In this document: positions 3,675-52,585 of the stretch, in pieces
Layout: every line of letters begins with the position of its first letter
Position numbering within the stretch: the first letter of the stretch is position 1
From: Candidatus Omnitrophota bacterium
GTDB taxonomy: Bacteria > Omnitrophota > Gorgyraeia > Gygaellales > Profunditerraquicolaceae
DNA: 52,585 bases
Assembly (NCBI GenBank): GCA_043808425.1
Contig: JAZDEW010000023.1
Location: forward strand, 1-52,585
Direction of reading: 5' to 3'
Made by a program: the position numbers and the translations under genes
The notes under the pieces: generated by a model
What the model saw: only the letters and a program-made list of their open reading frames with translations
Database searches by the model: none
What the model was told of the DNA's origin: nothing

Positions 3675-3748
3675 TGCGCCCAGCAGGAATCGAACCTGCA
3701 ACATCCAGCTCCGAAGGCTAGCGCTCTATCCAGTTGAGCTATGGGCGC
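3675..3748 (-). tRNA. tRNA-Arg(TCG)
   Basis: GCGCCCATAGCTCAACTGGATAGAGC...CTAGC-CT-TCG-GA-GCTGG...GGTTCGATTCC...GGGCGCA cloverleaf; CCA not encoded. Confidence 0.93.
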
Positions 3749-3749
3749 A

Positions 3750-4469
3750 TTAAATAATTTCAGCCTTATCCCCCAATATCTCTCTAATTTTCTCCAGCTT
3801 AGCTTTTTCCACGGGAAAAACATTTTCTTCCGCGGGCTTACGCGCAGGTGAATTAAGCTGAATTTTATCTGGATTTATATATTGAATCACTTTCTTTAAT
3901 TTCTCGATATGCTCCAAATCATCATTAACTCCGGCAATCAGCATGACCTCAAGCCAAATCTGGCCGCGAAATTCTTTTCTTAAAGCCACCAGGCCATCGA
4001 TAATTTCATTTAATTTTATGCCAATGTGCGGCCGATCGATGCGTTTAAAAATCTCTGCCTCCACCGCGTCTAAAGAAGGCACGATTAAATCCGCTTTCAA
4101 GAGCCCCTTGCGCACCACGGGGTCTCCTAAAAGCGTAGAATTTGTAATCACCGCTATTTTAAAACCATTTATATTTCTTACCCGATCAATTAACTCTCCT
4201 ATGCAAGTATTTAAAGTTGGTTCGCCCAGCCCGGAAAGAGTAATAAATTTTAGCTCCCGGGCTTCCTGAAGATGATTTTGCATCCAGGATTTTAATTCCC
4301 GGATAATCTCATCGGCTTTAACGTATTCTTTTCTGGCCAGGACTGTCTTGCCCACGCTGCCCCATTGGCAGTAAATGCAGTCTAGATCGCATACTTTATG
4401 CAAACTAAGGCTTAAGCCCAAGGAAAGCCCTAGCCGGCGTGATTTTATCGGTCCATAGATATATTTCAT
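3750..4469 (-). CDS. Radical SAM protein (short TYW1-like Fe-S oxidoreductase family)
   Basis: YGPIKSRRLGLSLG N-terminus, CDLDCIYC (CxxxCxxC), SGLGEPTL, ITNSTLL. Confidence 0.88.
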   Translation of the reverse strand: MKYIYGPIKSRRLGLSLGLSLSLHKVCDLDCIYCQWGSVGKTVLARKEYVKADEIIRELKSWMQNHLQEARELKFITLSGLGEPTLNTCIGELIDRVRNINGFKIAVITNSTLLGDPVVRKGLLKADLIVPSLDAVEAEIFKRIDRPHIGIKLNEIIDGLVALRKEFRGQIWLEVMLIAGVNDDLEHIEKLKKVIQYINPDKIQLNSPARKPAEENVFPVEKAKLEKIREILGDKAEII

Positions 4470-9569: not shown

Positions 9570-11969
9570 TTAGAACCCGTGACTGGCGCTGAAATGAAAC
9601 CGGCCGCTCTTTTTAGTATCCTCGCCAGCGGTTTTATCCATCGGTATACCGTAATCCAGCATGATCGGGCCGATGGGAGTATTAATACGCAAACCTAGGC
9701 CTATGCCGGATTTTAAGCCTCCGGTATTCAGAGGGCCAGTTGCATCTTCGGAAGAAAAAATATCCCCTAATTTGTTCCAAACATTACCGACATCATAAAA
9801 AGCCGCGACTTTTAAAAAACTAAATAAAGGATAGGTGTACTCAATATTACCCACGGCCATCGACGCGCCGCCCAAAGGAGCCGAGTCTGAACCAACCGGG
9901 CCCACGCTTCTTTCCTCGTAACCTCTAATCGTATAGGCGCCGCCGGCAAAAAATCTTTCAGAGATCGGTATTTTTTCTGTACTGCTATAAGGCTGCGCCA
10001 ACCCTAACCTGCCTCTTAGCTCAAGCACGGCACCACGGGGCATGGGAAAATAATGTGAAGCCCGTCCAAAAAGTTTCCAATAATTTTTATCTCCTCCGAG
10101 CGGGCCGCCGGCAAAATCAAACGCGCCGGTAAGCAAATTACCTTTCCGGGTGTTGAAAACATTATCTCTGGAATCATAAGTCAGGCTGGGAGTAATCACG
10201 CTAACCAAATAAGGGCTATCTCGCGCCTCATCATTTAAATCAGCAGAAGAACTATCCGCCAGATTACTAATATCTATTTGATCTAAACGATAGGCGAGAT
10301 CGCTTCTTAAATATTCAGATACCTCCTTGCCCAAACGTAAGTCACCTCCGGTCACCGTTTCATCATACCCATATCCTGAGCTGGTATCGCGCGTATGCGC
10401 GCGGCGGTATAAATCAAAACCGAAAGAAACCGGATAATTAAACATCCAGGGCTCGGTAAAACTTAATTCAAAACCATTGCTTAAATTACCAATGGAGGCG
10501 CGCACCTTTAGATTCTGCCCGGCGCCGGTAAAATAAGGCCAGTTCCTCCAATCAAAGTTCTTCTGCTCAACTTCTATAAAACCTACAAACTGATCAACGG
10601 TGCTATAGCCGCCGCCAAAGCTAAAAGCTCCGGTCTTAGTTTCTTTGACCTCCACCACTAAATTCTTTTTATCCGGCTGGGCCGTCTCCTCGGTATCATA
10701 ACTGATCTCTTCAAAATATCCTAAATTTGTCAGCCTTTCCTTGCTCCGGCGCAGCTTATCCCCATCAAACCTCTCCCCGGGGTGAATCCTCATTTCCCGG
10801 CGGATAACCACATCTTTAGTTTTAATATTGCCCCGGATCTTAAGCTTATCCACATAAACAACCTGATTTTCCGTAATTCCATAGGTTATATCTACGCGCC
10901 CGGTATCGGAGTTAACGATCATGGACTCCTGGATCCGCGCGGAAATATAACCCCGGTCAAAATATAAACCCTGAACGCTCATAATATCTTTCTTCATTGC
11001 CTCGCTGCTAAAAACCTTGCCCGGCAGGCAATCGCTTAAGCGGCTTAAGATTTCTTTTTCCGTAATATCCTTATTTCCGTTCACCATAACCGAGCCGACA
11101 AGATATTTCTTTCCCTCATCAACCTTGATCGTAATATACAACAAATATGACAGTTTAGCGTCCGGATTAACTTCATATGCTGCCACCACATCCGTATAGC
11201 CTTCGCGCTGATAAAATGATTTGACGCGCTCCATATCCTCTTTCAACACTTCATCCTTTAAGACCCCGGCGTTAAAAAACCAGCCGCGTTTAGTTTTAAG
11301 CAATTTCAAGATACGGCCCTTAGAAAAATTATTATTACCCTCAACCAGGATATCTTTAATGCGCACCTTCTTGCCCTCAACAACCGTAAAAACTATATTT
11401 GCTTTATTGGCCTGAGTATCCTGGTCGACTTTATAAGTAATCCGCGCCTGGCTATAACCTATTTTTTCATACATTTTTTTTAATGTCCGCGCGTCTTCGC
11501 TTAAAGACGGATAATCCAAATACTGAGTTTCTTTAGATTTTAGCTGCTGTTTCAATTTCTCATCCTTCATAGTGATAAGATTAATCCCCGAAAAATTAAT
11601 CTTGCCGATAATCGGCCTTTCCACGACGCTCAATATAATCTTTAAACCATCTTTATAATCCCGGGTATCGATTTTGATATCGCTGAAAAAACCCAATAGA
11701 TATAATCTTTTTAAATCGTCGCTAACAATATTTTCCTGATAAGCGCTGCCGATACGCGTCTTCATCTTAGAGACAATAACATTAGTACTAATGGATTTAT
11801 TACCCGTAACCTCTATGGCGGTAACATTTTTTAATACCGCGGGGAGATCTTCGGAGGCAACGGAAGCTTCTTGCTCAATCTGGTTCTGTGGATTTTCTTC
11901 CGCAAAAACAAAAAAGTGGCTATGCAAAAGAAACAGGGCCGCCAAAAGTGTAAGAATAGATTTACGCAT
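9570..11969 (-). CDS. bamA: Outer membrane protein assembly factor BamA
   Basis: Five POTRA-like repeats, ERFFAGGAYTIRGY, TPIGPIMLDYG, C-terminal Phe. Confidence 0.96.
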   Translation of the reverse strand: MRKSILTLLAALFLLHSHFFVFAEENPQNQIEQEASVASEDLPAVLKNVTAIEVTGNKSISTNVIVSKMKTRIGSAYQENIVSDDLKRLYLLGFFSDIKIDTRDYKDGLKIILSVVERPIIGKINFSGINLITMKDEKLKQQLKSKETQYLDYPSLSEDARTLKKMYEKIGYSQARITYKVDQDTQANKANIVFTVVEGKKVRIKDILVEGNNNFSKGRILKLLKTKRGWFFNAGVLKDEVLKEDMERVKSFYQREGYTDVVAAYEVNPDAKLSYLLYITIKVDEGKKYLVGSVMVNGNKDITEKEILSRLSDCLPGKVFSSEAMKKDIMSVQGLYFDRGYISARIQESMIVNSDTGRVDITYGITENQVVYVDKLKIRGNIKTKDVVIRREMRIHPGERFDGDKLRRSKERLTNLGYFEEISYDTEETAQPDKKNLVVEVKETKTGAFSFGGGYSTVDQFVGFIEVEQKNFDWRNWPYFTGAGQNLKVRASIGNLSNGFELSFTEPWMFNYPVSFGFDLYRRAHTRDTSSGYGYDETVTGGDLRLGKEVSEYLRSDLAYRLDQIDISNLADSSSADLNDEARDSPYLVSVITPSLTYDSRDNVFNTRKGNLLTGAFDFAGGPLGGDKNYWKLFGRASHYFPMPRGAVLELRGRLGLAQPYSSTEKIPISERFFAGGAYTIRGYEERSVGPVGSDSAPLGGASMAVGNIEYTYPLFSFLKVAAFYDVGNVWNKLGDIFSSEDATGPLNTGGLKSGIGLGLRINTPIGPIMLDYGIPMDKTAGEDTKKSGRFHFSASHGF

Positions 11970-35742: not shown

Positions 35743-36682
35743 CAACAACCCCGTATATTCTATTCCTAGTATACCTGTCAATAAATGGTGTCGCCGCATT
35801 CATCATCAATATGGCATAAGATACGCCCTCCGGATAGCCTCCCCAAATCCGGATCACTGCCGTAAGCAAACCACAGCCCAGGCCAAAAATTAACTGCCCT
35901 TTAGCCGTTAAGGGAGTGGCCACATAATCCGTAGCCATAAAAAATGCTCCCAGAATCAGTCCGCCGCTGAGGATATGAAACAGCCAGTCTCCGCTAAAAA
36001 GCTGCGAGGCTCCAAAAACATAAGTTAAAACTGCCGTGGTACAAATATAAGTTACCGGAATATGCCAGGAAATATAACCTTTAATTAAAAGTAACGCTGC
36101 GCCGATTAATAACGCCAAGATACAAACTTCACCAATGCATCCGCCATGCTTACCCAAAAATAAATCCAAATAAGAAATATGCTCTAAAACCTTGCCTTCT
36201 TTAAGTATGGTCAAAGGAGTTGCGCTAGCGATGGCATCAAAACTAAACGGGGGGGTAAAGGTTGTCATATATTTTGGCCAGGAAGCCATCAAAAAAACTC
36301 TACCCACCAGCGCCGGGTTAAAAATATTTTGCCCTAAACCGCCAAAAACCTGCTTGCCCACCGCGATAGAAAACACTGCCCCCACCACCGGTAACCACAA
36401 CGGTACTCCGGGAGGAAGATTAAAAGCCAACAATATACCGGTAATTACCGCTGAGCCATCCAAAACCGTAATCTTTTTCTTCGTCCATATTCCAAAGACC
36501 AGCTCCGTTAATACTGCAGCCGTTACCGCGACTAAAGTTACCCATAAAGCGTCCAGTCCAAATATAATTACACCCGCAATCCCGGCAGGAACAAGGCTGA
36601 TAACCACCGTCCACATAATCCGGGCAATGGATTCTTGTTTATGAATATGTGGCGAACCTGAAACAATAAAATTATTTATCAT
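35702..36682 (-). CDS. rnfD: Rnf complex subunit D
   Basis: SPHIH, KQVFGGLGQNIFNPAL, FMN-site SATPL, GAFFMATD, GGYPEG. Confidence 0.95.
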   Translation of the reverse strand: MINNFIVSGSPHIHKQESIARIMWTVVISLVPAGIAGVIIFGLDALWVTLVAVTAAVLTELVFGIWTKKKITVLDGSAVITGILLAFNLPPGVPLWLPVVGAVFSIAVGKQVFGGLGQNIFNPALVGRVFLMASWPKYMTTFTPPFSFDAIASATPLTILKEGKVLEHISYLDLFLGKHGGCIGEVCILALLIGAALLLIKGYISWHIPVTYICTTAVLTYVFGASQLFSGDWLFHILSGGLILGAFFMATDYVATPLTAKGQLIFGLGCGLLTAVIRIWGGYPEGVSYAILMMNAATPFIDRYTRNRIYGVVGKLKNRKTEKPKN

Positions 36683-41867: not shown

Positions 41868-42011
41868 TTATTTATTAAACTTATCTGACGATTGGGCCTT
41901 CTTTTTGCCCTTTTCGCCTTGGTTACTTTTGATAATCAAATAAATATAAAAAAGCGCTACTACTCCTCCAAGAACATACACCGGCCAATCCTGCCATAAA
42001 TTTCCAGTCAT
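41868..42011 (-). CDS. 47-aa single-pass membrane protein; not in the ORF track
   Basis: MTGNLWQDWPVYVLGGVVALFYIYLIIKSNQGEKGKKKAQSSDKFNK; GAGAGG RBS; stop 2 nt before the transporter ATG. Confidence 0.72.
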   Translation of the reverse strand: MTGNLWQDWPVYVLGGVVALFYIYLIIKSNQGEKGKKKAQSSDKFNK

Positions 42012-42045
42012 GCTTAACCTCTCTATTAGTTTAAATTCGTTTTAA

Positions 42046-42654
42046 CTAAAATTTTAAACCGTTAAATCCCATAAATGCAAGACACATCATAGAAGCAATG
42101 ATAAATGCCAAAGGTAAATCCTTGAATGTCTTGGGTACATTACAAAGCTCAAGCCGCTCACGAATACCTGACATTAAAAGCATGGCCAAGGTATAGCCAA
42201 TTCCAACACATAGCCCATGAAATATCGAAAATATTAAACTTCCGGATACTGCCTTATTGTTTACAAAGAACATATCAATATTTAAAACCGCTACGCCTAA
42301 TACGGCGCAATTTGTAGTAATCAAAACAAGATAAATACCAAAGGCGCGATAAAGAGTGGGGCTCGTTTTTCTGATCACCATTTCCACTAACTGTACAAAA
42401 GCAGCAATGATTAAGATAAAAACTAAGGTGCGTAAATATGTTAAGTTAAAAGGAGCCAAAATAAATCTATAGACTAACCATGTGATAACAGATGATACTG
42501 TGGTTACAAACGTAACAGCCATGCTCATGGCAAACGCCTGCCTTGTGTTTTTAGATACAGCGACAAAAGGACACAGCCCCAAAAAACGCGACAAAATAAC
42601 ATTGTTAACAAAAACTGCCGAAATAAAAATCGCTAAAAACTGTCCAAAATTCAT
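42046..42654 (-). CDS. rnfA: Rnf complex subunit A, displaced from the rnf operon
   Basis: VNNVILSRFLGLCPF, LRTLVFILIIAAFVQLVE, LITTNCAVLG, GIRERL. Confidence 0.94.
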   Translation of the reverse strand: MNFGQFLAIFISAVFVNNVILSRFLGLCPFVAVSKNTRQAFAMSMAVTFVTTVSSVITWLVYRFILAPFNLTYLRTLVFILIIAAFVQLVEMVIRKTSPTLYRAFGIYLVLITTNCAVLGVAVLNIDMFFVNNKAVSGSLIFSIFHGLCVGIGYTLAMLLMSGIRERLELCNVPKTFKDLPLAFIIASMMCLAFMGFNGLKF

Positions 42655-42658
42655 TTTT

Positions 42659-42787
42659 TTACTCCTTCATGCTATTTAATCGTATTTTTTTATTTCTTAC
42701 TTTTCTATTATTCGCAGAATAAAATAGAACTGAGAACAAAATCGCTAACATAATAATTTCAAACGTCTGTAGTATTTCTGCTGACAC
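42659..42787 (-). CDS. 42-aa single-pass membrane protein; not in the ORF track
   Basis: GTG after AGGGGG; MSAEILQTFEIIMLAILFSVLFYSANNRKVRNKKIRLNSMKE; its 3' end carries the rnfA RBS (AAGGAG TAA). Confidence 0.62.
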   Translation of the reverse strand: MSAEILQTFEIIMLAILFSVLFYSANNRKVRNKKIRLNSMKE

Positions 42788-42826
42788 GATATCCCCCTAC
42801 AATTTTAGTTTTTTATTTATTTTAAT

Positions 42827-42903
42827 AAAAGCTATCATGCATGCACACGCAAGATGCGTCCGGCCACCTAAAACCTCCGGAAGCAAGAAGATTCCGGACA
42901 CTT
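42827..42903 (-). ncRNA. Candidate cation-riboswitch-like element, variant copy upstream of rnfA
   Basis: Same architecture as 52459-52545: 5' tail, hairpin, GGAGG linker, hairpin with 8-nt loop complementary to the tail, weak terminator with U4. Confidence 0.55.
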
Positions 42904-42917
42904 GTACAACAAATTAA

Positions 42918-44129
42918 CTAAAGATTAACAATATCTTCGGGATGATACAACGAAAGAAACAATAACATATAATTCCTTAAATGGCGCGTAATTAAAAAAT
43001 TGTTTTTTATATGCTCCCTCCCATTTTCTCCTAATTTCTTGGCGTACGCCGGACTGCTTAAAAGTTGTTTTATTGCAAAACTCGCTCCCTCAACAGAATG
43101 ACATAATAATCCTGAATATTTATGTTTTATCTGCAAAGGGATGTCGCCGACATTTGAAGCTACAACGGGTTTTGCCTTCCATAATGCCTCGGCAACTGTT
43201 AAGCCAAATCCCTCCCTGATAGACTTCTGGATAATTACATCTGAGGCCCTTTGCAGCGCATTAACCTCTATATCATTTTGAGGTAATAGTAAGATATGAA
43301 TATCCGGGTCTTTCTTAGCTTTTTCTTTAACCTCTTCAAGAACCCTGAATCCTTCCGGATCATCTTCTGCTGTCCCACCAGCCAACACCAGCTGGCAATC
43401 TGTATATTTTTTTACCTGCAAATATGCCTCAATTACGCCTATGGGATCTTTCAGGCGGTCAAAGCGGGATATCTGAGTAATGATTGGCTTATCTTTTTTG
43501 ATATCGTATTTTTTCAATACTAAATCAATTATTTCTTGTGGCAATTCCTTATTTTTATCACTTAACGGATCGATAGAAGGAGGAATTAAGAATTGCCTAA
43601 TGGGTAACTTCCTTGAAAAAGTCGGAGCGGAAAACACTGCTGAGTCGTATCGAATAATAAAATCCATAAGAAATCCCCAAACTTTTTCATCGGGATTAGA
43701 AACATCAATATGGCAACGCCAAAGCCACTTATTAACGGCTTTCTTTTTTATTAAGGCTATTGGTTGCGGGTCATGAATGAAAATAATGTCCCCGTAGGTA
43801 TCAACGCTTTCGATATTCTGCTGGCTAGTCTCCATGAATACTTCAAAATCTCTTTTAGTTATCTCCTCGGCTCTGCCATGCAAAGCGTTGTGAAACTTTT
43901 TTGTCACTGCAAAAAACTGCTCTCCACCCTTTATCACGTCCCATTTGGTATCTACCTCCAATTCCCTCAACAGCGGGACCATCCGGTTTAATATCTCCGC
44001 CACTCCCCCACCCACAGGAGTAGAATTTATATGCTGAATAACCTTGCCTTTTAACCGTTCACCAAGCAACCTTAAATCATCAATAATCGCTTGCCCCACT
44101 AAAGAAATATACTTTTCTATTTTTGCCAT
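42918..44129 (-). CDS. treT: Trehalose glycosyl-transferring synthase TreT-like (GT4)
   Basis: HINSTPVGGGVAEIL, TKKFHNALHG, HDPQP, WRCHID, SRFDRLKDP, QKSIREGFGLTVAEALWK. Confidence 0.88.
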   Translation of the reverse strand: MAKIEKYISLVGQAIIDDLRLLGERLKGKVIQHINSTPVGGGVAEILNRMVPLLRELEVDTKWDVIKGGEQFFAVTKKFHNALHGRAEEITKRDFEVFMETSQQNIESVDTYGDIIFIHDPQPIALIKKKAVNKWLWRCHIDVSNPDEKVWGFLMDFIIRYDSAVFSAPTFSRKLPIRQFLIPPSIDPLSDKNKELPQEIIDLVLKKYDIKKDKPIITQISRFDRLKDPIGVIEAYLQVKKYTDCQLVLAGGTAEDDPEGFRVLEEVKEKAKKDPDIHILLLPQNDIEVNALQRASDVIIQKSIREGFGLTVAEALWKAKPVVASNVGDIPLQIKHKYSGLLCHSVEGASFAIKQLLSSPAYAKKLGENGREHIKNNFLITRHLRNYMLLFLSLYHPEDIVNL

Positions 44130-44801
44130 TTAATTAACTATCTTTCTTTCAACAATTTGTATAATCTTATTCCTTAAATCCTCTAAAGTACTCGTGTAGG
44201 GATCAAAACTTGAAATATTATCTGCTAATTTCTTATCTCCCAGGGAATTTTCTATCCAAAACGCGAAATCATTAGTTGGCTTTTCAAGCCTAAGCCGCGC
44301 TTCAAAAATATGAAAATAAATAGAATCAATGGTAATTTTCTTTAAAACCTCTACGAATTCATTCAGATCATACGCGATATAGTTTGTCGGCAGAATAAAA
44401 CTGACGGATTTAATAAAATGAAATTCTTCTTCAGATCTGGCAAATTTCAACTTGGCCAGCGGATTATCCTTTAAATAGATCTCAATGGTTGAGGCGATCT
44501 TTTCCCGCAAATCCCGGATAGTTGAGTATTGTATGGTGTCAATACTCACCAGCCTTTCTCCAAGCTCATCTTCTCCAAGAATATCCGTTACCCAATAAGC
44601 AAAATCGTTAGGAGGCTCGGGAGAAAGATACTGATGCTGCTGTAAAAATCTATGGGTGTGGTGATAAATACATGAGCCAGATACTTGTTTAATAAGGGCC
44701 AAAAACTGGCCTAAGGTGGTCGCTCGCAAGCCGGTCAGCTCCGACAAATGCAATCTCGTGCAAAACCTAAATGGCTCTTTTGCTTTTATTAATTCTTCCA
44801 T
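44130..44801 (-). CDS. DUF5752 / OrfY-like protein (TreT partner)
   Basis: Internal two-fold repeat (PFRF..L.QF..IK.V...CIYHH..NDFAYW / FHF..L.EF..LK.I...SIYFH..NDFAFW); abuts treT. Confidence 0.75.
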   Translation of the reverse strand: MEELIKAKEPFRFCTRLHLSELTGLRATTLGQFLALIKQVSGSCIYHHTHRFLQQHQYLSPEPPNDFAYWVTDILGEDELGERLVSIDTIQYSTIRDLREKIASTIEIYLKDNPLAKLKFARSEEEFHFIKSVSFILPTNYIAYDLNEFVEVLKKITIDSIYFHIFEARLRLEKPTNDFAFWIENSLGDKKLADNISSFDPYTSTLEDLRNKIIQIVERKIVN

Positions 44802-44803
44802 AA

Positions 44804-45601
44804 TTAGCTATACTGTAAGGCTAGTATCGAACGTAAAAATTTAGCTACTTCTTCTGTATTCTTTAAATAATAATCAGCTTTGGAACTCCCGGATTTTCCC
44901 ACGAATACCGTTAACCCTTTTCTTTTTAAAGCCTTAAAAGCGTCCTCATCAGTTATATCATCTCCGATATAAACGGGCAAGGCATTCTTAACTCCTAAAA
45001 TAAATTGCTGTCTTGCTAGAAACCACAAGGCTGCCTTGCCTTTATCCCACTTAACCGGCGGCTTTATCTCATAAACTTTTTTACCGGCATTAACCTTTAT
45101 TTTATTACGCGCTATATAAGGACTGGTAACTTCAGAAATAATCTTCTCAAATACAGGCATATCTTTTTTGTCAACTAAGCGGTAGTGAATACTCAGTGTC
45201 AAGCCTTTATCCTCAACCAGCGCGCCCTTAATGCCAGAGAGCCGCTTCTGCATATCTTTAGCGATATTTCGTATAATTGATTTTAATCGCGATGTAACCT
45301 GGCTTTTAAATTTAATCTTCGCCCCTTCGATCTCCAAACCGTGGTTACCAGCGTAGACGATACCGCCTATCCCGACTATATTTTTTATATCCTCCAGCTT
45401 CCTTCCGCTGAGAATACCTATTTTACAATAAAAACTTCTGGATAATTTCTGTAATAATTCTTTTGTATTCTTATGGATAACTGCCTTACTCGGAGTCTTG
45501 ACAATAGGCGTTAATGTCCCATCATAATCCAATAAAAGTAAAATAAATTTATTTCTTAACAGCTCTTTTATCTTACTAAATTGCGAAAATAAATATTCCA
45601 T
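44804..45601 (-). CDS. otsB: Trehalose-6-phosphate phosphatase
   Basis: HAD motifs LDYDGTLTPI, SGR, GNHGLE, WDKG, YIGDDITDEDAF. Confidence 0.94.
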   Translation of the reverse strand: MEYLFSQFSKIKELLRNKFILLLLDYDGTLTPIVKTPSKAVIHKNTKELLQKLSRSFYCKIGILSGRKLEDIKNIVGIGGIVYAGNHGLEIEGAKIKFKSQVTSRLKSIIRNIAKDMQKRLSGIKGALVEDKGLTLSIHYRLVDKKDMPVFEKIISEVTSPYIARNKIKVNAGKKVYEIKPPVKWDKGKAALWFLARQQFILGVKNALPVYIGDDITDEDAFKALKRKGLTVFVGKSGSSKADYYLKNTEEVAKFLRSILALQYS

Positions 45602-45662
45602 GCCTAAATCTTGCCCAATGATATCAATTCCGTAATAATATTCCCTCACCCGGCGATAAACG

Positions 45663-45775
45663 TTATTTTCCAAAATAACTTTTCGCGTTTATTCCGTTAT
45701 AATCTAAAAACAACATTACATATTTATTGCTCAATTTTTCTTTTAGCTTACCCCAAGCGTTAAGATATTTTTCAT
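45663..45775 (-). pseudogene. Frameshifted, truncated N-terminal remnant of a second otsB
   Basis: ATG out of frame with YLNAWGKLKEKLSNKYVMLFLDYNG; compare OtsB YLFSQFSKIKELLRNKFILLLLDYDG. Confidence 0.65.
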
Positions 45776-45779
45776 ATTC

Positions 45780-46964
45780 CTAATGATGCTCAATAGTTAT
45801 TTCGCCCGCCTTTTGCAAAGCGTATTTAGTACATAAAGGGCCAAATAATTCATAGATAACGGTAGTGGCGACAATCGTAGTAAAAATCATGCCGCCAACA
45901 TTTGGAAAATCGTTTTTAGCGACTAAGGCGCAGCCTAAAGCAACGCCTGCTTGTGGCACTAAGCCTAAGCCCAAATATTTTTTTATGCTATTAGAAGCGC
46001 CAGAAATATGCGCGCCTAATTTCGCCCCAGCTACCTTACCAATCACACGGAATATTAAATATGCCAAACCAATTAATCCTAATTTAGACAAAAGCCCTAT
46101 TTCTAAATTTGCCCCGGCCAAAACAAAAAAAAGTAAAAATAGCGGAGAATCTACTGTTTTTAAAACCTCAAAAGGATTGGAGGAGGATTTGTTGACATTA
46201 ACTAAAACTGCCCCTAAAAACATACTTGCTAAGAGTACGGACAAGTGAAGCCAAGTAGCTATTCCTATAGTTGAAAAAATAAATCCAAGAGTAAAAATCA
46301 GAAGCTCTGCTTGCGTACGAATAAAACGAGAAAAATAAGACAATAGCATAGCCATGGCGCCCCCTAAAATAAAAGCGCCCAATATGCTCAAGATAGAGTT
46401 AAAAATTACCTTAATCAAAAAAAATGTATCTACCATGTGGCTATGAATAGCCTGGGATATGGCCAAAGAAATAGCAAAAATAATAAGGCACCAGGCATCA
46501 TCAATAGCAACGACCCCTAAAAGCGTATCCGTAAAATTGCCTTTAGCGCGATATTCTCTTATCACCATTACCGTAGCCGCAGGTGCAGTAGCAGAAGCAA
46601 TCGCCCCAAAAAGAAGAGCAATATAAAAAGGTTGCCTTAGAATAAACAAAAATATTAATGTGACTAAAAACCATGCCCCACATGCCTCTAAAACCGAAAT
46701 CCAGACTACTGACTTACCAATCTTACGAAAGCTATCACGAGAAAAATTTTGACCGATACTAAAGGCAATTATTCCTAAAACTATTTTTGAAATTAAACCT
46801 GACATATTAAGAATTGCTACAGGAATAAGATTTAACAATGAAGATCCGATGAGTATCCCTACCATAAGATAAGCGGTTACTGCTGGAAACTTAATTTTAC
46901 TTATCAACCTGGCAGAAAATAAACCTGCAAGCAGAATAAAACCAAATCCTAATATAGTATTCAC
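45780..46964 (-). CDS. Cation:proton antiporter (Na+/H+ exchanger family)
   Basis: PAVTAYLMVGILIG, ASATAPAAT, VAIDDA, FFVLAGA, PQAGVALG. Confidence 0.9.
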   Translation of the reverse strand: MNTILGFGFILLAGLFSARLISKIKFPAVTAYLMVGILIGSSLLNLIPVAILNMSGLISKIVLGIIAFSIGQNFSRDSFRKIGKSVVWISVLEACGAWFLVTLIFLFILRQPFYIALLFGAIASATAPAATVMVIREYRAKGNFTDTLLGVVAIDDAWCLIIFAISLAISQAIHSHMVDTFFLIKVIFNSILSILGAFILGGAMAMLLSYFSRFIRTQAELLIFTLGFIFSTIGIATWLHLSVLLASMFLGAVLVNVNKSSSNPFEVLKTVDSPLFLLFFVLAGANLEIGLLSKLGLIGLAYLIFRVIGKVAGAKLGAHISGASNSIKKYLGLGLVPQAGVALGCALVAKNDFPNVGGMIFTTIVATTVIYELFGPLCTKYALQKAGEITIEHH

Positions 46965-47435
46965 TTAAACGACACCTTTTCCCGAAAAGACTTGCCGGAT
47001 TATATCAAATATACCAATCTTTCCGACTAGTTCTCCTTTTTTATCTACTACGGGAAATTCTTCTTTAAGCTGTAGCTTCATAAGCCTAAAAGCCTCCTCT
47101 AGAGTAGTATCTTCCCGTAAAGAAACGAATTTTGTTTCCATTATATCATCCGCAATCACCAAGTCTCCGATATCATCAGTCAATTCTACCTTAAAAATAT
47201 CTTCTTCCTGGTCATCCAGAAAAGGGACCGCGTTCAATATTTCCGGCCGATATGGGCTAAACACGCCAATTAAACTACGAAAAGAAATAACCCCCACTAA
47301 ACGGCTTCCCTCTTCAACTACAGGCACCAACGGAAAAAGATGAAATTTACTAAACAACCCTAACAATTCTTTTAATTTTGTGGATCGCCTTACCGTTATT
47401 ACTTCCTTTGACATTATTTCTTTTACTTGCATCAA
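46965..47435 (-). CDS. Tandem CBS-domain protein
   Basis: VKEIMS..VPVV..LVGVIS; DIME..FPVVD..LVGKI. Confidence 0.9.
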   Translation of the reverse strand: MMQVKEIMSKEVITVRRSTKLKELLGLFSKFHLFPLVPVVEEGSRLVGVISFRSLIGVFSPYRPEILNAVPFLDDQEEDIFKVELTDDIGDLVIADDIMETKFVSLREDTTLEEAFRLMKLQLKEEFPVVDKKGELVGKIGIFDIIRQVFSGKGVV

Positions 47436-47448
47436 TTAGCTCCTTAAT

Positions 47449-48501
47449 TTAGCTTTTTTCCTGTTCATAGTTTATCGCCCTAATCGGATAAGGAATATTA
47501 ATCCCTTCTTGAATATAGCGTTTATGCAATCTCTTAATAAACTCATGTTTTATCAAATACTGATCAACAAATTCCTTAGCCCTTAATATAACCGTGAATT
47601 TTATGCTAGAATCGCCAAAAGTCTTATAACGAATAAATGGCTCAAAATAAGCAACCCCACCGTTTATTTCTGTCATCACTAACTTTGCCACTTCACAAGT
47701 AATCTTCTCAACTTTTTCCAAATCACTTTTATAATGCACTCCCAAATCCACTAAAACTGCCATCTCCTTATCCGGTAAACAATAGTTCGTAACAATAGCT
47801 TTATTTAATTTATCATTTGGAATAAGAACAATATTGTTAGGCAACATTTTGATCTTAGTTGAACGCCAGTTAATATCCACCACATAGCCTTCTTCTTGCG
47901 TTTCCAGTTTGATATAATCACCAACTCTTATCTGCTTAGCCACAGTAATATGAAAACCGGCAAAAAGATTTGACAAAGTATCCTGAAGCGCCAAAGCAAC
48001 GGCCAAGCCACTCACGCCTAAAGTTGCTAATATCGGTGTTATCGATATTCCTAGGCTATTAAGAATTATTAACGCGCCAATCGAGAAAACAAAAATCCTG
48101 GCAATATTCTGAGTGAGGCTGGTAACAGGCAAGGCAGAATCAATTCTAGAAGCATAAAATTTTATTACCCCGGATAATAAATTCGCCAATGCCAACACTA
48201 CAGAAATTATGCCTAAGATAAGAGTACTTTTACTCATAACGTGCACAATATTTTCTGGAAGCTTTGAAAATTGCAACGCAAAATATAAAGCCAGCATCAA
48301 ACATAAAACCATAAATGGGCTTTTAGCTACTTGCACGACAATATCATCCAGCTGCGTAGATGTTTTTTTAGCCCAATGTGAAAGGCGGCTAAAAATTATC
48401 TTCTTAACAATGAGCCCAATAAACAAAACTACCAGAAAAATAATCAATGGCATAAACATTTCCGCTAAACTAGCGAATCTTAAAAGCAGATCTTTATTCA
48501 T
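47449..48501 (-). CDS. Small-conductance mechanosensitive channel (MscS family)
   Basis: LGVSGLAVALALQDTLSNLFAG, RVGDYI, GINIPYP. Confidence 0.93.
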   Translation of the reverse strand: MNKDLLLRFASLAEMFMPLIIFLVVLFIGLIVKKIIFSRLSHWAKKTSTQLDDIVVQVAKSPFMVLCLMLALYFALQFSKLPENIVHVMSKSTLILGIISVVLALANLLSGVIKFYASRIDSALPVTSLTQNIARIFVFSIGALIILNSLGISITPILATLGVSGLAVALALQDTLSNLFAGFHITVAKQIRVGDYIKLETQEEGYVVDINWRSTKIKMLPNNIVLIPNDKLNKAIVTNYCLPDKEMAVLVDLGVHYKSDLEKVEKITCEVAKLVMTEINGGVAYFEPFIRYKTFGDSSIKFTVILRAKEFVDQYLIKHEFIKRLHKRYIQEGINIPYPIRAINYEQEKS

Positions 48502-48516
48502 CTACACCTCAATAAG

Positions 48517-50754
48517 TTATATTTTATTTAAAGCAACCAGCTCAGTAATAATATTTGCTGCCCAGCGGTAAATATTATTTTCGGCTATCACCTTGCGCAT
48601 ATTTTCCATACGTCTTTGTTTCTCTTCCTTGGGCATCTGGATTGCCAGTTTTATGCTATCCGCAAACTCTTCAATCGAGTACGGATTAACTAGAATAGCA
48701 TCGGTGAGCTCGCGCGATGCTCCTGTAAATTGACTTAAGATTAAAGCCCCGGATAAATCATCTCTCTCCGCCACATACTCTTTAGCCACCAAATTCATCC
48801 CGTCATGCAGTGAGCTAACGATACAAATATCACCAAGTTTATAGTAAGGCTGAATATCATCCTGAGAGAAATGCTTTTTAAGATAGATTATCGGTTTCCA
48901 ATTCCCATCTATGTGTTTCCAGTTAATTTTTTCAACCAATTCATCAATTTCGCCAATTAAGTCGTGATAACGCTTAATATGCGTACGGCTTGGGGCAGCC
49001 AATTGGATAAAAATAAATTTCTTCTTATACTCAGGATACTTCTCTAAAAATCTATCTATCGCTAAGATTCTCTCAACTATGCCTTTAGTATAGTCAATTC
49101 TATCCACGCCCACCGCGACAATTTTATTCTCAAGCTCAAACTCTTTTTTTAGCTTTTCTACATCCCTTATCGGTTCAACTTTAAATGAGCCATCGCCGAT
49201 ACGCGCATTAATACTTATGGGAAAAGCCCTTATAAAAGTCTCTTTTCCCGAACGCACAACACTAAATTTTTCCGTATCCACGCGTGACTCCAGCAGGCGA
49301 TTAGCGGTATCGAGAAAATTATTACAATGATTCTGAACATGAAAACCAATCAAATCCGATCCTAACATTCCTTCTAAAATTTCATTCTGAAAAGGACAAA
49401 TCATAAAGGCTTCTGGGGTAGGCCAGGGGATATGCCAGAATAAGGCTATTTTCGCATCCGGCCGCTTATCTTTTATCATTTTTGGCAAAAGCGTAAAATG
49501 ATAATCCTGTATAAATATGAACGGACTTTTAGCGGGCAACTCACTCAAAACGCTATCCGCAAACTTTTGATTTACTTCTTTATACATGCGCCAGTCAGAT
49601 TCTTTAAAAATCGGACGCGTATGTGTATTATGGCATAATGGCCACAACCCTTCGTTTGAAAAACCATAATAATAACCTTGCTCCTCATCCTTGTTAAGCC
49701 AAATTCTTTTAAGAATATACCGGTTATCATCGGGGGGGACACCAAGTTTATCTTTAGAGTTAACGAATTTCCTATCCGAATTACCGCTGCCATGAGCAAT
49801 CCAAGTCCCGCCACAAGCAGAAAGTATGGGGTGAATTGCAGTAACAACACCGCTTGCCGGCCTTATACATATCGCCTTACCAATGCCATCATCGAAAACA
49901 TGCATATAAGGCTCCCTATTAGAAACCACAAACAATGAATTATCGCCTAATTTTGCATGAATAAGGTCTCTCAGCTTAGCTTCAGTCCAAAGCTCTTCTT
50001 TTTGCAATCGGACATGCGCTTCATCTGATAGGGTGCGCCGAGCTACTCTGATGCTTAAAGCAACCTGCTCTACTTCGCTGGCAAGCTTACCAAGATCACC
50101 TTTTTCTTTTATAGGATGCGCTTTATCAATTTCTCCTCTCTGAAAATACTTAAACCAATCTGTTAGGCGCTGTATGGGTAGAGCAAAAATCTGCCTATGA
50201 AGAATAATGGAAATAAGAAAAATCACTACAACTAAAATTATTAACGTTGAACTAATATGTTTCCAAAGCTCAACTAACCTCGCAAAGACATAGGAAGTAT
50301 CGTGAATAACCTCAACCATTCCCAGAAACTGCCCCTCGTCATCAACTATGGGGAGAATATAGCTATAAACCTGATAATCTTTAAATTGCTCTAATTCTCC
50401 CCGCGGAGCCAGATTAGCTATAATATCTTTAATATAAGGCTTATCTTTTTCTTTCCAATCGAGGAACCTTTTAGTAAGCGCGATTATATTCCCGTCTTTA
50501 TCGTAAATAGCGCAGCCCTGCAATCTTTCCCGGGTCTCAAATTTTTCCGCAAGGTAATTTGCGGTCTTTAAATCATTGACTAAAAGCACATGCTTCACCG
50601 ATAATTCCATGCTTTCGGCAATGCTTCTGGCTTTTCGCTTTAAGTCATCAATAAGCTTCTCTTCTTCTAAGCGCACCTGAAAAAAACCAAAAAGCGTAAA
50701 GGCCACGGAAACAATAATTAGAATCGGTAGAATAAATAAAAATACTCTTCTCAT
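48517..50754 (-). CDS. otsA: Trehalose-6-phosphate synthase (GT20) fused to an N-terminal TM-sensor-TM-HAMP module
   Basis: VVSNREPY, YYYGFSNEGLWP, QDYH, GVDRIDYTKG, DGMNLVAKEY; two TM helices and HAMP-like PIQRL...DLGKLA. Confidence 0.92.
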   Translation of the reverse strand: MRRVFLFILPILIIVSVAFTLFGFFQVRLEEEKLIDDLKRKARSIAESMELSVKHVLLVNDLKTANYLAEKFETRERLQGCAIYDKDGNIIALTKRFLDWKEKDKPYIKDIIANLAPRGELEQFKDYQVYSYILPIVDDEGQFLGMVEVIHDTSYVFARLVELWKHISSTLIILVVVIFLISIILHRQIFALPIQRLTDWFKYFQRGEIDKAHPIKEKGDLGKLASEVEQVALSIRVARRTLSDEAHVRLQKEELWTEAKLRDLIHAKLGDNSLFVVSNREPYMHVFDDGIGKAICIRPASGVVTAIHPILSACGGTWIAHGSGNSDRKFVNSKDKLGVPPDDNRYILKRIWLNKDEEQGYYYGFSNEGLWPLCHNTHTRPIFKESDWRMYKEVNQKFADSVLSELPAKSPFIFIQDYHFTLLPKMIKDKRPDAKIALFWHIPWPTPEAFMICPFQNEILEGMLGSDLIGFHVQNHCNNFLDTANRLLESRVDTEKFSVVRSGKETFIRAFPISINARIGDGSFKVEPIRDVEKLKKEFELENKIVAVGVDRIDYTKGIVERILAIDRFLEKYPEYKKKFIFIQLAAPSRTHIKRYHDLIGEIDELVEKINWKHIDGNWKPIIYLKKHFSQDDIQPYYKLGDICIVSSLHDGMNLVAKEYVAERDDLSGALILSQFTGASRELTDAILVNPYSIEEFADSIKLAIQMPKEEKQRRMENMRKVIAENNIYRWAANIITELVALNKI

Positions 50755-50772
50755 AAATAATAACCTCTAATT

Positions 50773-51444
50773 TTACTGCGATTTTACCTTACTTAATTTA
50801 GAAGGTAAAATAACGATTTCCACTCTCCTATTTTTCTGCTTATTCCGCACTATGTCATTCGGCGCTACCGGATGAAATTCTCCGTATCCGTTTGCAGAAA
50901 GGCGCTGCGGTTTAATCTTTCCTTCGCCGATAAGATCGTGTAATACTGCCAATGCCCTAGCCGAAGAAAGCTCCCAATTTGAATTCCATCCTGAATATTT
51001 AATCGGATCGTTATCCGTATGGCCTTCAATAGCTATATTTGATCCAGGAACATCCCTATTTAAAACTTCAGCAACCTTATTAAGCGTAATCTTACCGTCT
51101 TTTTTTACCTTGTCTTTCCCCGAATCAAAGAATATCTCGGAAACAAAAGTAATCACCAGGCCACGTTCAGTCATTTGCAGCTTGGCCTTATATTCTCCAA
51201 TTTCTTTTTTAAGCGATTCTTCAAGCTCCCGTTTAGCCTGTTCCAGGTCAGAAAGCTCTTTATCTTTCTCTTGATATACCTGTCGAACTTCTTTTGTTTT
51301 CTCCTTCTGAAGCTGAGCGGCCATATTTCTTAAGCTGGCATTCTCTATCTCTAGCTCGTCGGCTCTTCTCGCTTTCTGGATATAGGCGCATCCGGATAAC
51401 ATAGAAACCATCAAAATCATAATAATCATTAATTTAGCCTGCAT
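50773..51444 (-). CDS. OmpA/MotB-domain lipoprotein with coiled coil
   Basis: Lipobox LSGC; FDSGK, EGHTD, NWELSSARA, KNRRVEI. Confidence 0.9.
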   Translation of the reverse strand: MQAKLMIIMILMVSMLSGCAYIQKARRADELEIENASLRNMAAQLQKEKTKEVRQVYQEKDKELSDLEQAKRELEESLKKEIGEYKAKLQMTERGLVITFVSEIFFDSGKDKVKKDGKITLNKVAEVLNRDVPGSNIAIEGHTDNDPIKYSGWNSNWELSSARALAVLHDLIGEGKIKPQRLSANGYGEFHPVAPNDIVRNKQKNRRVEIVILPSKLSKVKSQ

Positions 51445-51690
51445 TAGCAAATCTCCGTTTTTACAATCCCTTAAAAGCATTTATACGCGCTCAACGCAAC
51501 CTTAACGATAAGCTCTTCCAGAGGCAAAGCTATTAAGATTCGCGCGCTTAGTTAATACGCAAATAATAAAATTACTTTACAAGTAAACACTACGCCCGCA
51601 TCACGACAAACACCATTCCCAGGGCTGGCCTTATAAGCAATCGTCATATCAACCGATAAATATGCTAAGAGAATATTTTCTTCATTTCCA

Positions 51691-52068
51691 TTATTCAGAC
51701 AAATATTTATTCAGCTCCACGGATGTTTTCTTGCCTACAATGCCATCTGCCTTAAGATTATGTGCCTTTTGAAATTTTATAATAGCACCTTTGGTCTTAG
51801 AACCAATTTTGCCATCAACCGCACCTTGATAAAAACCGGAACTCTTTAATGCCTTTTGAATTTGCCTCACACTTAAGTTAACCAAGACAGAATATGTTGT
51901 TGTTTTGGCTGGCTGAACGTTTTCATAATCCCAAGAAGAAGTATTTTGCTGGTATGTTTGCGAAGGCCCCTGGTAGCCTGATGGCTGCGTTGTTTGTTTC
52001 TTTACGCCAGTCGTACAGCCTCCTATAATTAAAGTAAATAAAATAAACCCCATCATTTTAATTAACAT
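51691..52068 (-). CDS. Peptidoglycan-binding domain lipoprotein
   Basis: Lipobox IGGC; IQKALK..GFY.GAVDG.IG..T..AI.KFQ..L.ADGIVG. Confidence 0.9.
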   Translation of the reverse strand: MLIKMMGFILFTLIIGGCTTGVKKQTTQPSGYQGPSQTYQQNTSSWDYENVQPAKTTTYSVLVNLSVRQIQKALKSSGFYQGAVDGKIGSKTKGAIIKFQKAHNLKADGIVGKKTSVELNKYLSE

Positions 52069-52123
52069 AATCTTCTCCTTTTCAATAAAAAACCATCACT
52101 AGAAATACCATTAAACGGTAAAA

Positions 52124-52414
52124 TTAAATAACTTGCTCCAGGGGCATAACAAAAGCCTTAACTCCTTCTTTACCAAGAGTTTTACGCAGATTCGTTATGC
52201 CAAGAACCACCTGATTTGCCTGTGTATCATCGCAGGCTACATATGAAATATAATTTAGGCCTGGCCAGACTTGATCACCTAAGTGAGTTCCGGAAGCCGT
52301 CCCTTTCCCATATACACGGGTTATCTTTGTGTAGTTGACGAGGCCGCATCCATCTAAAACTTCCATTACCTCAACGTCTATAGCTTCATTATATGTTAGC
52401 ATGATCATTTTCAT
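52124..52414 (-). CDS. P-II-like protein (PG0541 transporter-associated family)
   Basis: 96 aa; YTK..VYGKG..SGTHLG..VWPG.N; start at MKMIML after AGGAG (ORF-track extension overlaps the riboswitch). Confidence 0.8.
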   Translation of the reverse strand: MKMIMLTYNEAIDVEVMEVLDGCGLVNYTKITRVYGKGTASGTHLGDQVWPGLNYISYVACDDTQANQVVLGITNLRKTLGKEGVKAFVMPLEQVI

Positions 52415-52458
52415 CTTAACTCCTATAAAGCTATGGCTAAAATTTATCTTTATAAAAT

Positions 52459-52545
52459 AAAAAAGCCATCCTACACTCGCGTGCAAGATGGCGGCCCGAC
52501 CATCTAATGATCCTCCAGGAATACTTATTTATTCCCAGACCGCTT
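52459..52545 (-). ncRNA. Candidate Na+/Li+ riboswitch (nhaA-I / DUF1646-like) with overlapping terminator
   Basis: GCGGUC-[UGGGAAUA..UAUUCCUG]-GAGG..AGAUGG-UCGGGCCG-CCAUCU, overlapped by terminator GCCAUCUUGCAC-GCGA-GUGUAGGAUGGC-U6. Confidence 0.72.
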
Positions 52546-52556
52546 ATCCATCCACT

Positions 52557-52562
52557 ATTATA
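52557..52562 (-). promoter_or_regulatory. -10 box of the salt-stress cluster promoter
   Basis: TATAAT about 12 nt upstream of the riboswitch candidate; -35 would fall at the window edge. Confidence 0.5.
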
Positions 52563-52585
52563 TTGAAGTTATTATAACATACACA

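Follow-up and report, generated by a model that had tools for sequence, protein, structure and literature searches.

A terminator-coupled nhaA-I riboswitch as the probable ON switch of a salt-stress gene cluster in an uncultured Omnitrophota bacterium

A short segment at the end of a contig from a Candidatus Omnitrophota MAG, located ahead of a long cluster of co-oriented genes, resembles a riboswitch that overlaps with a transcription terminator. This raises the questions of which RNA class it belongs to, how it would act on the genes behind it and which ligand it would sense. We have analyzed the whole of contig C23, hereafter referred to as the window (52,585 nucleotides), from this genome, which has a size of 1.27 Mb and is 92.8% complete.

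RNAs of the nhaA-I motif are Li+-I riboswitches; they are usually located before nhaA, and their probable target is the ribosome binding site (PMC9646797). Rare nhaA-I variants carry an intrinsic terminator. Deltaproteobacteria were the only source of these variants in the data set of the authors, and the genes behind them are of unknown function; the terminator-bearing variants that sense Na+ were named Na+-II (White et al., 2022, Sci Rep, PMC9646797). In single-round transcription in vitro, with no ribosomes present, the terminator-bearing variant from Desulfobulbus propionicus was activated by Na+ and weakly by Li+ (PMC9646797). The 2017 discovery paper described rare associations with signalling, peptidoglycan-related and DUF1646 genes (Weinberg et al., 2017, PMC5737381). 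Both the RNA class and its mechanism are already described, and the element studied here is new as a member with regard to its phylum and its first gene.

The element and its RNA class

A preliminary description, made from the sequence alone, had reported a TATAAT, a 5' tail, the hairpins P1 and P2 with a linker between them and a terminator on the minus strand, and direct reading found every one of these features in place:

52562-52557, minus strand: TATAAT, a possible -10 box (direct reading), separated by about 11 nt from the conserved AAG-CGGU tail downstream; it would serve as part of the promoter
52545-52539, minus strand: 5' tail AAGCGGU, with GCGGUC at 52543-52538 (direct reading); the GGU is near-invariant in relatives
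52538-52515, minus strand: P1 hairpin of 8 bp with an 8-nt loop, CUGGGAAU-AAAUAAGU-AUUCCUGG (Rfam alignment and covariation)
52514-52506, minus strand: AGG (52514-52512), present in 73/73 copies of alignment A1 (see below), together with the linker AUCAUU
52505-52486, minus strand: P2 hairpin AGAUGGU-CGGGCC-GCCAUCU, the conserved ligand-sensing core, in which GAUGGUCGGGCCGCCAUC is identical to the Rfam consensus
52492-52465, minus strand: intrinsic terminator GCCAUCUUGCAC-GCGA-GUGUAGGAUGGC, followed by U6 at 52464-52459 (terminator scan and fold energies)

A covariance-model search, which had been proposed together with the preliminary description, matched the nhaA-I model (RF03057) to positions 52486-52542 on the minus strand over its full length (1-55), with a score of 48.7 bits as compared to a gathering score of 37, and with E = 1.1e-6 for the whole window. 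This was the sole riboswitch match when Rfam 15 was searched over the entire window, and the covariance model for the DUF1646 (Na+-I) RNA gave no match at E <= 10 within positions 42000-52585. The earlier assignment to an nhaA-I/DUF1646-type aptamer could thus be narrowed down to nhaA-I specifically. Judged from its sequence, the element at 52545-52459 (minus strand) genuinely belongs to the nhaA-I class of riboswitches (RF03057; the Li+-I / Na+-II RNAs of White et al., 2022). For the 121-nt region, the fold has a z-score of -3.63, and one of 200 shuffles folded as well.

The part of the terminator that extends beyond P2 consists of UGCAC-GCGA-GUGUAGGAUGGC followed by U6, and ends at position 52459 on the minus strand. 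At the other side of the element, the contig ends (52585) only 23 nt upstream of the TATAAT and 40 nt upstream of the tail and the aptamer. A consensus scan called no minus-strand promoter at the TATAAT region, where the sequence stops at the contig end and the -35 region is cut.

Competition between the aptamer and the terminator

The preliminary description had further proposed a 12-bp terminator with U6 that makes use of the 3' arm of P2, and both the terminator scan and the fold energies confirm it. The terminator called at 52492-52465 (minus strand) has 12 pairs, of which 6 are G-C, a loop of 4 and TTTTTTATTT thereafter, and all seven bases of the 3' arm of P2 (52492-52486) are located inside its 5' arm. 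Nearest-neighbour energies, computed on the 87-nt element, were as follows:

P1 alone: -7.9 kcal/mol
P2 alone: -8.2 kcal/mol
Terminator alone: -20.9 kcal/mol
Aptamer fold (P1 and P2), ON: -16.1 kcal/mol
Terminator fold (P1 and terminator), OFF: -28.8 kcal/mol

In the equilibrium ensemble, the mean pair probability was 0.98 for the terminator and 0.0 for P2. Since the terminator is favoured at equilibrium and shares the 3' arm of P2, termination would be the default outcome, and the polymerase would pass only if P2 is kinetically held.

The same arrangement was searched for in related copies of the element, the criterion being a hairpin with an energy of -6 kcal/mol or lower whose end is no more than 3 nt away from a T-run. 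Such a hairpin and T-run were identified in 69 of the 73 copies from the genus and the order, always starting 6-10 nt into the core, inside CCGCCAUC. The four misses were inspected by eye: L007 and L081 have an interrupted T-run after such a stem, while L044 and L031 have no such stem. In a set collected from the phylum, 41 of 43 copies were located by pattern and the other two were confirmed with the model; the terminator was present in 36 of the 41 pattern-located copies. The mutually exclusive folds and the ON-switch logic that had been claimed for the locus are hence supported by the shared arm here and in the related copies, with the D. propionicus RNA as a precedent.

We consider it very likely that a transcriptional ON switch, in which an nhaA-I aptamer gates a shared-arm terminator ahead of a PII-like gene, is the full, best explanation of this element. 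According to the mechanism that we propose, the two-hairpin aptamer would be transcribed first, with the GGU tail, P1, the AGG linker and P2 with its invariant GGUCGGGCC loop region. If the ligand is absent, the next 27 nt would invade P2 to form the far more stable 12-bp terminator followed by U6, so that transcription would stop ahead of the first gene. If a small alkali cation is bound, P2 would be held long enough for the polymerase to clear the U-tract and enter the PII-like (PG0541-family) gene, and the transcript would probably run on into the cluster of envelope, trehalose, MscS and antiporter genes.

Conservation, covariation and decay among the Omnitrophota copies

The closest relatives of the first downstream protein are encoded on Candidatus Omnitrophota MAG contigs. 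The host genome contains a second intact nhaA-I copy on contig C52 at 11331-11380 on the plus strand (L001, 1501-1550), which scored 52.2 bits, has an overlapping terminator and is located directly upstream of hflK and a second SPFH-type gene (hflK-hflC). Matches to nhaA-I were also obtained in 26 of 36 other genomes of the genus, many of which have 2-7 matches, and in 34 of 61 genomes overall, the own genome included. In an even draw from the phylum, matches were recovered from 39 of 151 genomes and 31 of 111 genera, again with the own genome included. Our literature search identified no paper describing nhaA-I RNAs in Omnitrophota; environmental examples may be included in the supplements of PMC9646797.

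Conservation of the aptamer in relatives, on which the preliminary description had made its reading depend, was evident from a covarying P1 and a near-invariant core in 73 copies. These 73 distinct copies (alignment A1) comprise that of the window, the other copy of the same genome, those of relatives in the genus and the order and four named loci, with three exact duplicates dropped. All eight pairs of P1 change on both sides, and 95.4% of the cells in P1 are paired. For the whole structure, 95.7% of the cells pair, as compared to 40-61% with the partners slid, and the covariation score was reached by none of 500 shuffles. Most positions of P2 do not vary, and a single pair changes on both sides in A1; the covariation of P2 is therefore little informative alone. 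In the phylum set, copy L083 shows a compensatory change from U-A to C-G in P2 and L094 a change from G-C to G-U.

The conserved columns are located in the tail, where columns 21-23 are G, G and U in 72, 70 and 73 of the 73 copies while columns 19-20 are variable, and in the core of P2, where the columns vary little or not at all. AGG is followed by A in the window copy and by U in the Rfam consensus; in A1 this base is A in 33 copies, U in 30, C in 3, G in 3 and a gap in 4. The lowest pair of P1 is CG in 43, UA in 17 and UG in 12 of the 73 copies, i.e., Y-R, as opposed to G-C in the Rfam consensus. The U of the GGU in P2 is retained in 71 of the 73 copies, with C in one and A in one, and the phylum set has U in 39/41 and C in 2/41. 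In the window copy, the P2 arm and loop equal the Rfam consensus, with no C-for-U at any consensus U of P2. The rare copies with C in this GGU (L026, L113, L124) precede an MscS gene, a trehalose-6-phosphate synthase gene and an unnamed 284-aa ORF.

The proposal of a six-pair pseudoknot between the tail and the P2 loop is not supported. The complementarity exists in the window copy (6 pairs, one of them G-U), but its conservation is no better than chance. The pairing of GCGGUC with GGCCGC was therefore not accepted as conserved: no more than 36/73 and 31/73 copies form the two outer pairs, and the innermost column (24) is occupied by the first, covarying pair of P1. The three middle pairs, GGU with GCC, never vary and can for this reason not be judged by covariation; a short tertiary contact is possible but unsupported. 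The two ion-riboswitch papers make no mention of a pseudoknot for the nhaA-I motif (PMC9646797, PMC9337991).

The set of 114 copies also bears on an explanation of another kind, a leader-peptide attenuator in which a ribosome that stalls on Pro-Pro would block the terminator. A GGAGG is located 8 nt upstream of AUG-GUC-GGG-CCG-CCA-UCU (MVGPPS...), and a start-type triplet is present in 113 of the 114 copies with a spacing of 5-15 nt from AGG to the start. However, codons 3 and 4 (GGG and CCG) are without synonymous change in the 114 copies, a count to be read with the qualification that the extraction patterns required parts of the core and that Rfam matches are biased towards the consensus. 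Furthermore, the ORF has between 6 and 672 codons and is not conserved beyond codon 6. The change in L083 removes the AUG while keeping the P2 pair, and the change in L094 breaks Pro-Pro and keeps a G-U pair. Finally, the class works in vitro without ribosomes (PMC9646797). Taken together, the missing synonymous changes, the variable ORF length, the two deviating copies and the ribosome-free function led us to reject the attenuator, which we hold to be extremely improbable, and the ion-responsive aptamer is retained as the explanation.

A second, decayed copy of the riboswitch was identified in the window with a lineage model, R1, built from the 73 copies:

42912-42850, minus strand: decayed riboswitch copy, directly after treT (R1, 30.1 bits, E about 2.5e-7)

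This copy was not matched by Rfam at E <= 10. P1, AGG and the outer part of P2 are preserved intact in it; in place of the invariant core it has GGCCGGACGC, which is two bases shorter. We rejected the idea that it represents a variant class and read it as a remnant, because the altered core is not conserved in the genus and the fold is no better than that of shuffles (z = -1.08). At 3 mismatches, the altered core was recovered from the own genome and from 1 of 47 other genomes, as compared to 3 hits for a reversed-pattern control; the pattern had one N too many, so that the site in the window itself scored 3 mismatches. A further, weak match to R1 at 35807-35867 (minus strand; 12.9 bits, E = 0.037), which has a P1-like hairpin and AGG but no core, is probably due to chance.

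Inspection by eye of the region behind the decayed copy revealed an ORF of 42 codons at 42655-42786 (minus strand) with a Shine-Dalgarno-like word, GGGGGA, upstream, one hydrophobic stretch and a basic tail. It is located between the decayed riboswitch and a gene that we take to be rnfA-like, and tiny single-helix peptides (28-49 aa) are frequent first genes after intact copies in the relatives.

We compared the region 52440-52560 (minus strand) to the loci L004, L013, L032 and L045 (alignment A3). In its tail and P1, the intact copy is similar to copies that precede OtsA and PG-lipoprotein genes, and in its terminator and 3' flank to copies that precede PII-like genes. The 5' half of the decayed copy matches copies before PII-like genes in relatives. 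The alignment suggests that the intact copy may be chimeric, and that recombination across the invariant core may have rearranged the cluster.

Genes behind the switch and the probable ligand

The genes that follow the intact copy in the window are the following:

52414-52124, minus strand: first gene, a 96-aa PII-fold, transporter-associated protein of the PG0541 family (NCBIfam NF045581, 86.3 bits, cut-off 45; Pfam P-II, 29 bits, cut-off 25)
52068-42918, minus strand: co-oriented cluster after the PII-like gene (ORFs and Pfam), presumably an operon over this extent, with genes 2 to 10:
Gene 2, minus strand: PG_binding_1 lipoprotein
Gene 3, minus strand: OmpA/MotB-like protein
Gene 4, 50754-48517, minus strand: 745-aa membrane-sensor-fused GT20 trehalose-6-phosphate synthase
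Gene 5, minus strand: MscS
Gene 6, minus strand: CBS protein
Gene 7, minus strand: Na_H_Exchanger-family antiporter
Gene 8, minus strand: trehalose phosphatase
Gene 9, minus strand: DUF5752
Gene 10, minus strand: TreT

The intergenic gaps are, in order, 55, 210, 18, 15, 13, 0, 106, 2 and 0 nt. Between the genes of the cluster, the scan called no terminator on the minus strand, and terminator-like sites are not enriched (7 found versus 8.1 +/- 3.0 expected in shuffles). We infer that transcription reads through beyond the first gene, across the gaps of 55 nt and 210 nt. In relatives, the genes for the PG-lipoprotein, OtsA and MscS each carry a riboswitch copy of their own. At its N-terminus, the trehalose-6-phosphate synthase (48517-50754, minus strand) is extended by about 270 aa, which contain a membrane anchor and are weakly similar to the input regions of sensor kinases. 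In the phylum, sensor-fused OtsA follows the riboswitch more often than any other gene, and eight homologous first genes match dCache_1.

The 114 copies yielded 104 distinct first ORFs, some of which are cut by locus ends, and the Pfam families among them were tallied:

Glyco_transf_20 (GT20 trehalose-6-phosphate synthase): 26/104
Band_7 (HflK), second most frequent: 15/104
MS_channel (MscS): 11/104
dCache_1: 8/104
PG_binding_1: 5/104
P-II: 4/104
Response regulator: 3/104
Pyruvate kinase: 2/104
DapB: 2/104
Na_H_Exchanger: 1/104

Many of the remaining first ORFs encode single-helix peptides of 28-49 aa, of at least three sequence types. NhaA is absent from the 24 families listed for the 104 first ORFs, and PF06965 (NhaA) gave no match in the host genome at its 92.8% completeness.

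Among 12 loci homologous to that of the PII-like gene, the four closest have a riboswitch located about 70 nt ahead of this gene. The locus with the closest ortholog (L032, 89% identity) has two tandem aptamers about 135 nt apart, each with its own terminator (3737-3931, plus strand), and environmental tandem copies have been reported near genes for cation transport and osmotic stress (PMC9646797). A tandem partner upstream of the window aptamer, beyond the contig end 40 nt away, is possible. The gene order in L033 and L035 is treT, riboswitch, PII-like gene and a permease of the CitMHS/ArsB superfamily. In the more distant locus L039, which is without riboswitch, the PII-like gene follows an AcrB-type pump.

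The sole published sequence discriminator for Na+ selectivity is position 54, which is C in the D. propionicus RNA and U in most nhaA-I RNAs (PMC9646797). The C54U mutant of that RNA (M4) responds to Li+, Na+ and NH4+, and in two tested representatives the response to Li+ becomes weaker if two Gs of the loop are changed to A (PMC9646797). According to the same study, related ion classes are distinguished by two regions, one of which is the lower part of P1, and an occasional association with trehalose-6-phosphate synthase is reported, for which the authors suggest that trehalose-associated copies may sense Na+ (PMC9646797). Going by the numbering of other constructs, position 54 would lie in the 5' arm or the loop of P2, where the window copy has the common U.

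We favour Na+ as the physiological ligand, signalling salt or osmotic stress, and consider this moderately probable. The preference is based on the regulon for trehalose synthesis, MscS and HflKC, the absence of nhaA, the presence of several copies per genome and the Na+ preference of the assayed terminator-type variant. The consensus-like P2 arm and loop with the common U in GGU speak against a simple assignment to Na+-II: by the published U/C54 criterion, and with position 54 placed as above, a P2 core of this type would look Li+-I-like or C54U-mutant-like.

The P2 core would agree with a canonical, Li+-selective Li+-I riboswitch, for which the cluster would be a lithium-toxicity response that uses a terminator instead of occlusion of the ribosome binding site. 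The score for RF03057 is above the gathering threshold, every consensus U in the P2 arm and loop is kept, and the window copy shares with Li+-I RNAs the GGU tail, the AGG linker and a GAUGGUCGGGCCGCCAUC equal to the consensus (RF03057; PMC5737381; White et al., 2022). Typical Li+-I members are, however, located before nhaA and thought to act on the ribosome binding site, whereas the window copy uses a terminator, and NhaA was found neither in the genome nor among the tallied families. The consensus has G-C and C-G in the lower P1 and U after AGG, as opposed to Y-R pairs and A in the window copy, and the lowest pair falls in a region that separates the ion classes (PMC9646797). Moreover, trehalose synthase, MscS and HflK genes recur as a set across the phylum, and many genomes of the genus have 2-7 matches, which is easier to reconcile with a frequent stress, for instance salt, than with an ion that is rare. 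In addition, the sole terminator-bearing variant that has been assayed prefers Na+ (PMC9646797). We therefore regard selectivity for Li+ as unlikely.

The U-type core is also compatible with a broad sensor of monovalent cations (Na+, Li+, NH4+), which would report the general ionic load of the cytoplasm in the manner of M4, the mutant with the common U (PMC9646797). The rare C variants L026, L113 and L124 precede MscS and trehalose-6-phosphate synthase genes as U copies do, in addition to the 284-aa ORF, which suggests that U or C is of little physiological effect here. M4 was, however, tested in one foreign sequence background only (PMC9646797), and cells keep Li+ and free NH4+ low, so that such a sensor would in practice still report Na+. 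We judge a broad sensor to be quite improbable, and Na+ remains the ligand that we prefer.

Compared with known systems, the window copy is similar to Na+-II of D. propionicus in its two-hairpin nhaA-I fold, in a terminator whose 5' arm is taken from the aptamer, in its ON logic and in the lack of nhaA (PMC9646797). It differs in that the published variants are from Deltaproteobacteria, precede genes of unknown function, with C54 in the tested one, whereas the window copy is from Omnitrophota, is followed by osmostress genes and has a U-type P2 core, given the inferred site of position 54. The Na+-I (DUF1646) RNAs are of similar architecture according to their authors, use terminator platforms and control Na+ and osmotic-stress regulons that include dapB (White et al., 2022, Nat Chem Biol, PMC9337991), which is also located behind 2 Omnitrophota copies. 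They have other conserved bases in the lower P1 and the P2 loop according to that paper, and their model did not match here at E <= 10.

The Omnitrophota copies could, as a tentative proposal, constitute a functionally distinct, phylum-wide subclass of nhaA-I, with the P2 core of Li+-I, a Y-R lower P1, near-constant coupling to a terminator and a multi-copy osmostress regulon that lacks nhaA and comprises sensor-fused trehalose-6-phosphate synthase, MscS, HflKC, PII-like PG0541 proteins and tiny membrane peptides. If they turn out to be Na+-selective, specificity would be set by something other than the published U/C54 rule, and the lower P1 would be the likelier determinant. The combination of a Li+-I-type core with a Na+-type context makes them good test cases for Li+/Na+ selectivity in the nhaA-I fold.

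Terminator-coupled nhaA-I RNAs are thus not confined to Deltaproteobacteria, as in the data set of the 2022 paper, but common in Omnitrophota. They provide a functional hint for the PG0541-type PII-like protein and for several families of tiny membrane proteins. In the uncultured bacterium studied here, the switch most likely turns on a salt-stress gene cluster, and the copies define a coherent salt and osmotic-stress regulon in a phylum with almost no experimental genetics.
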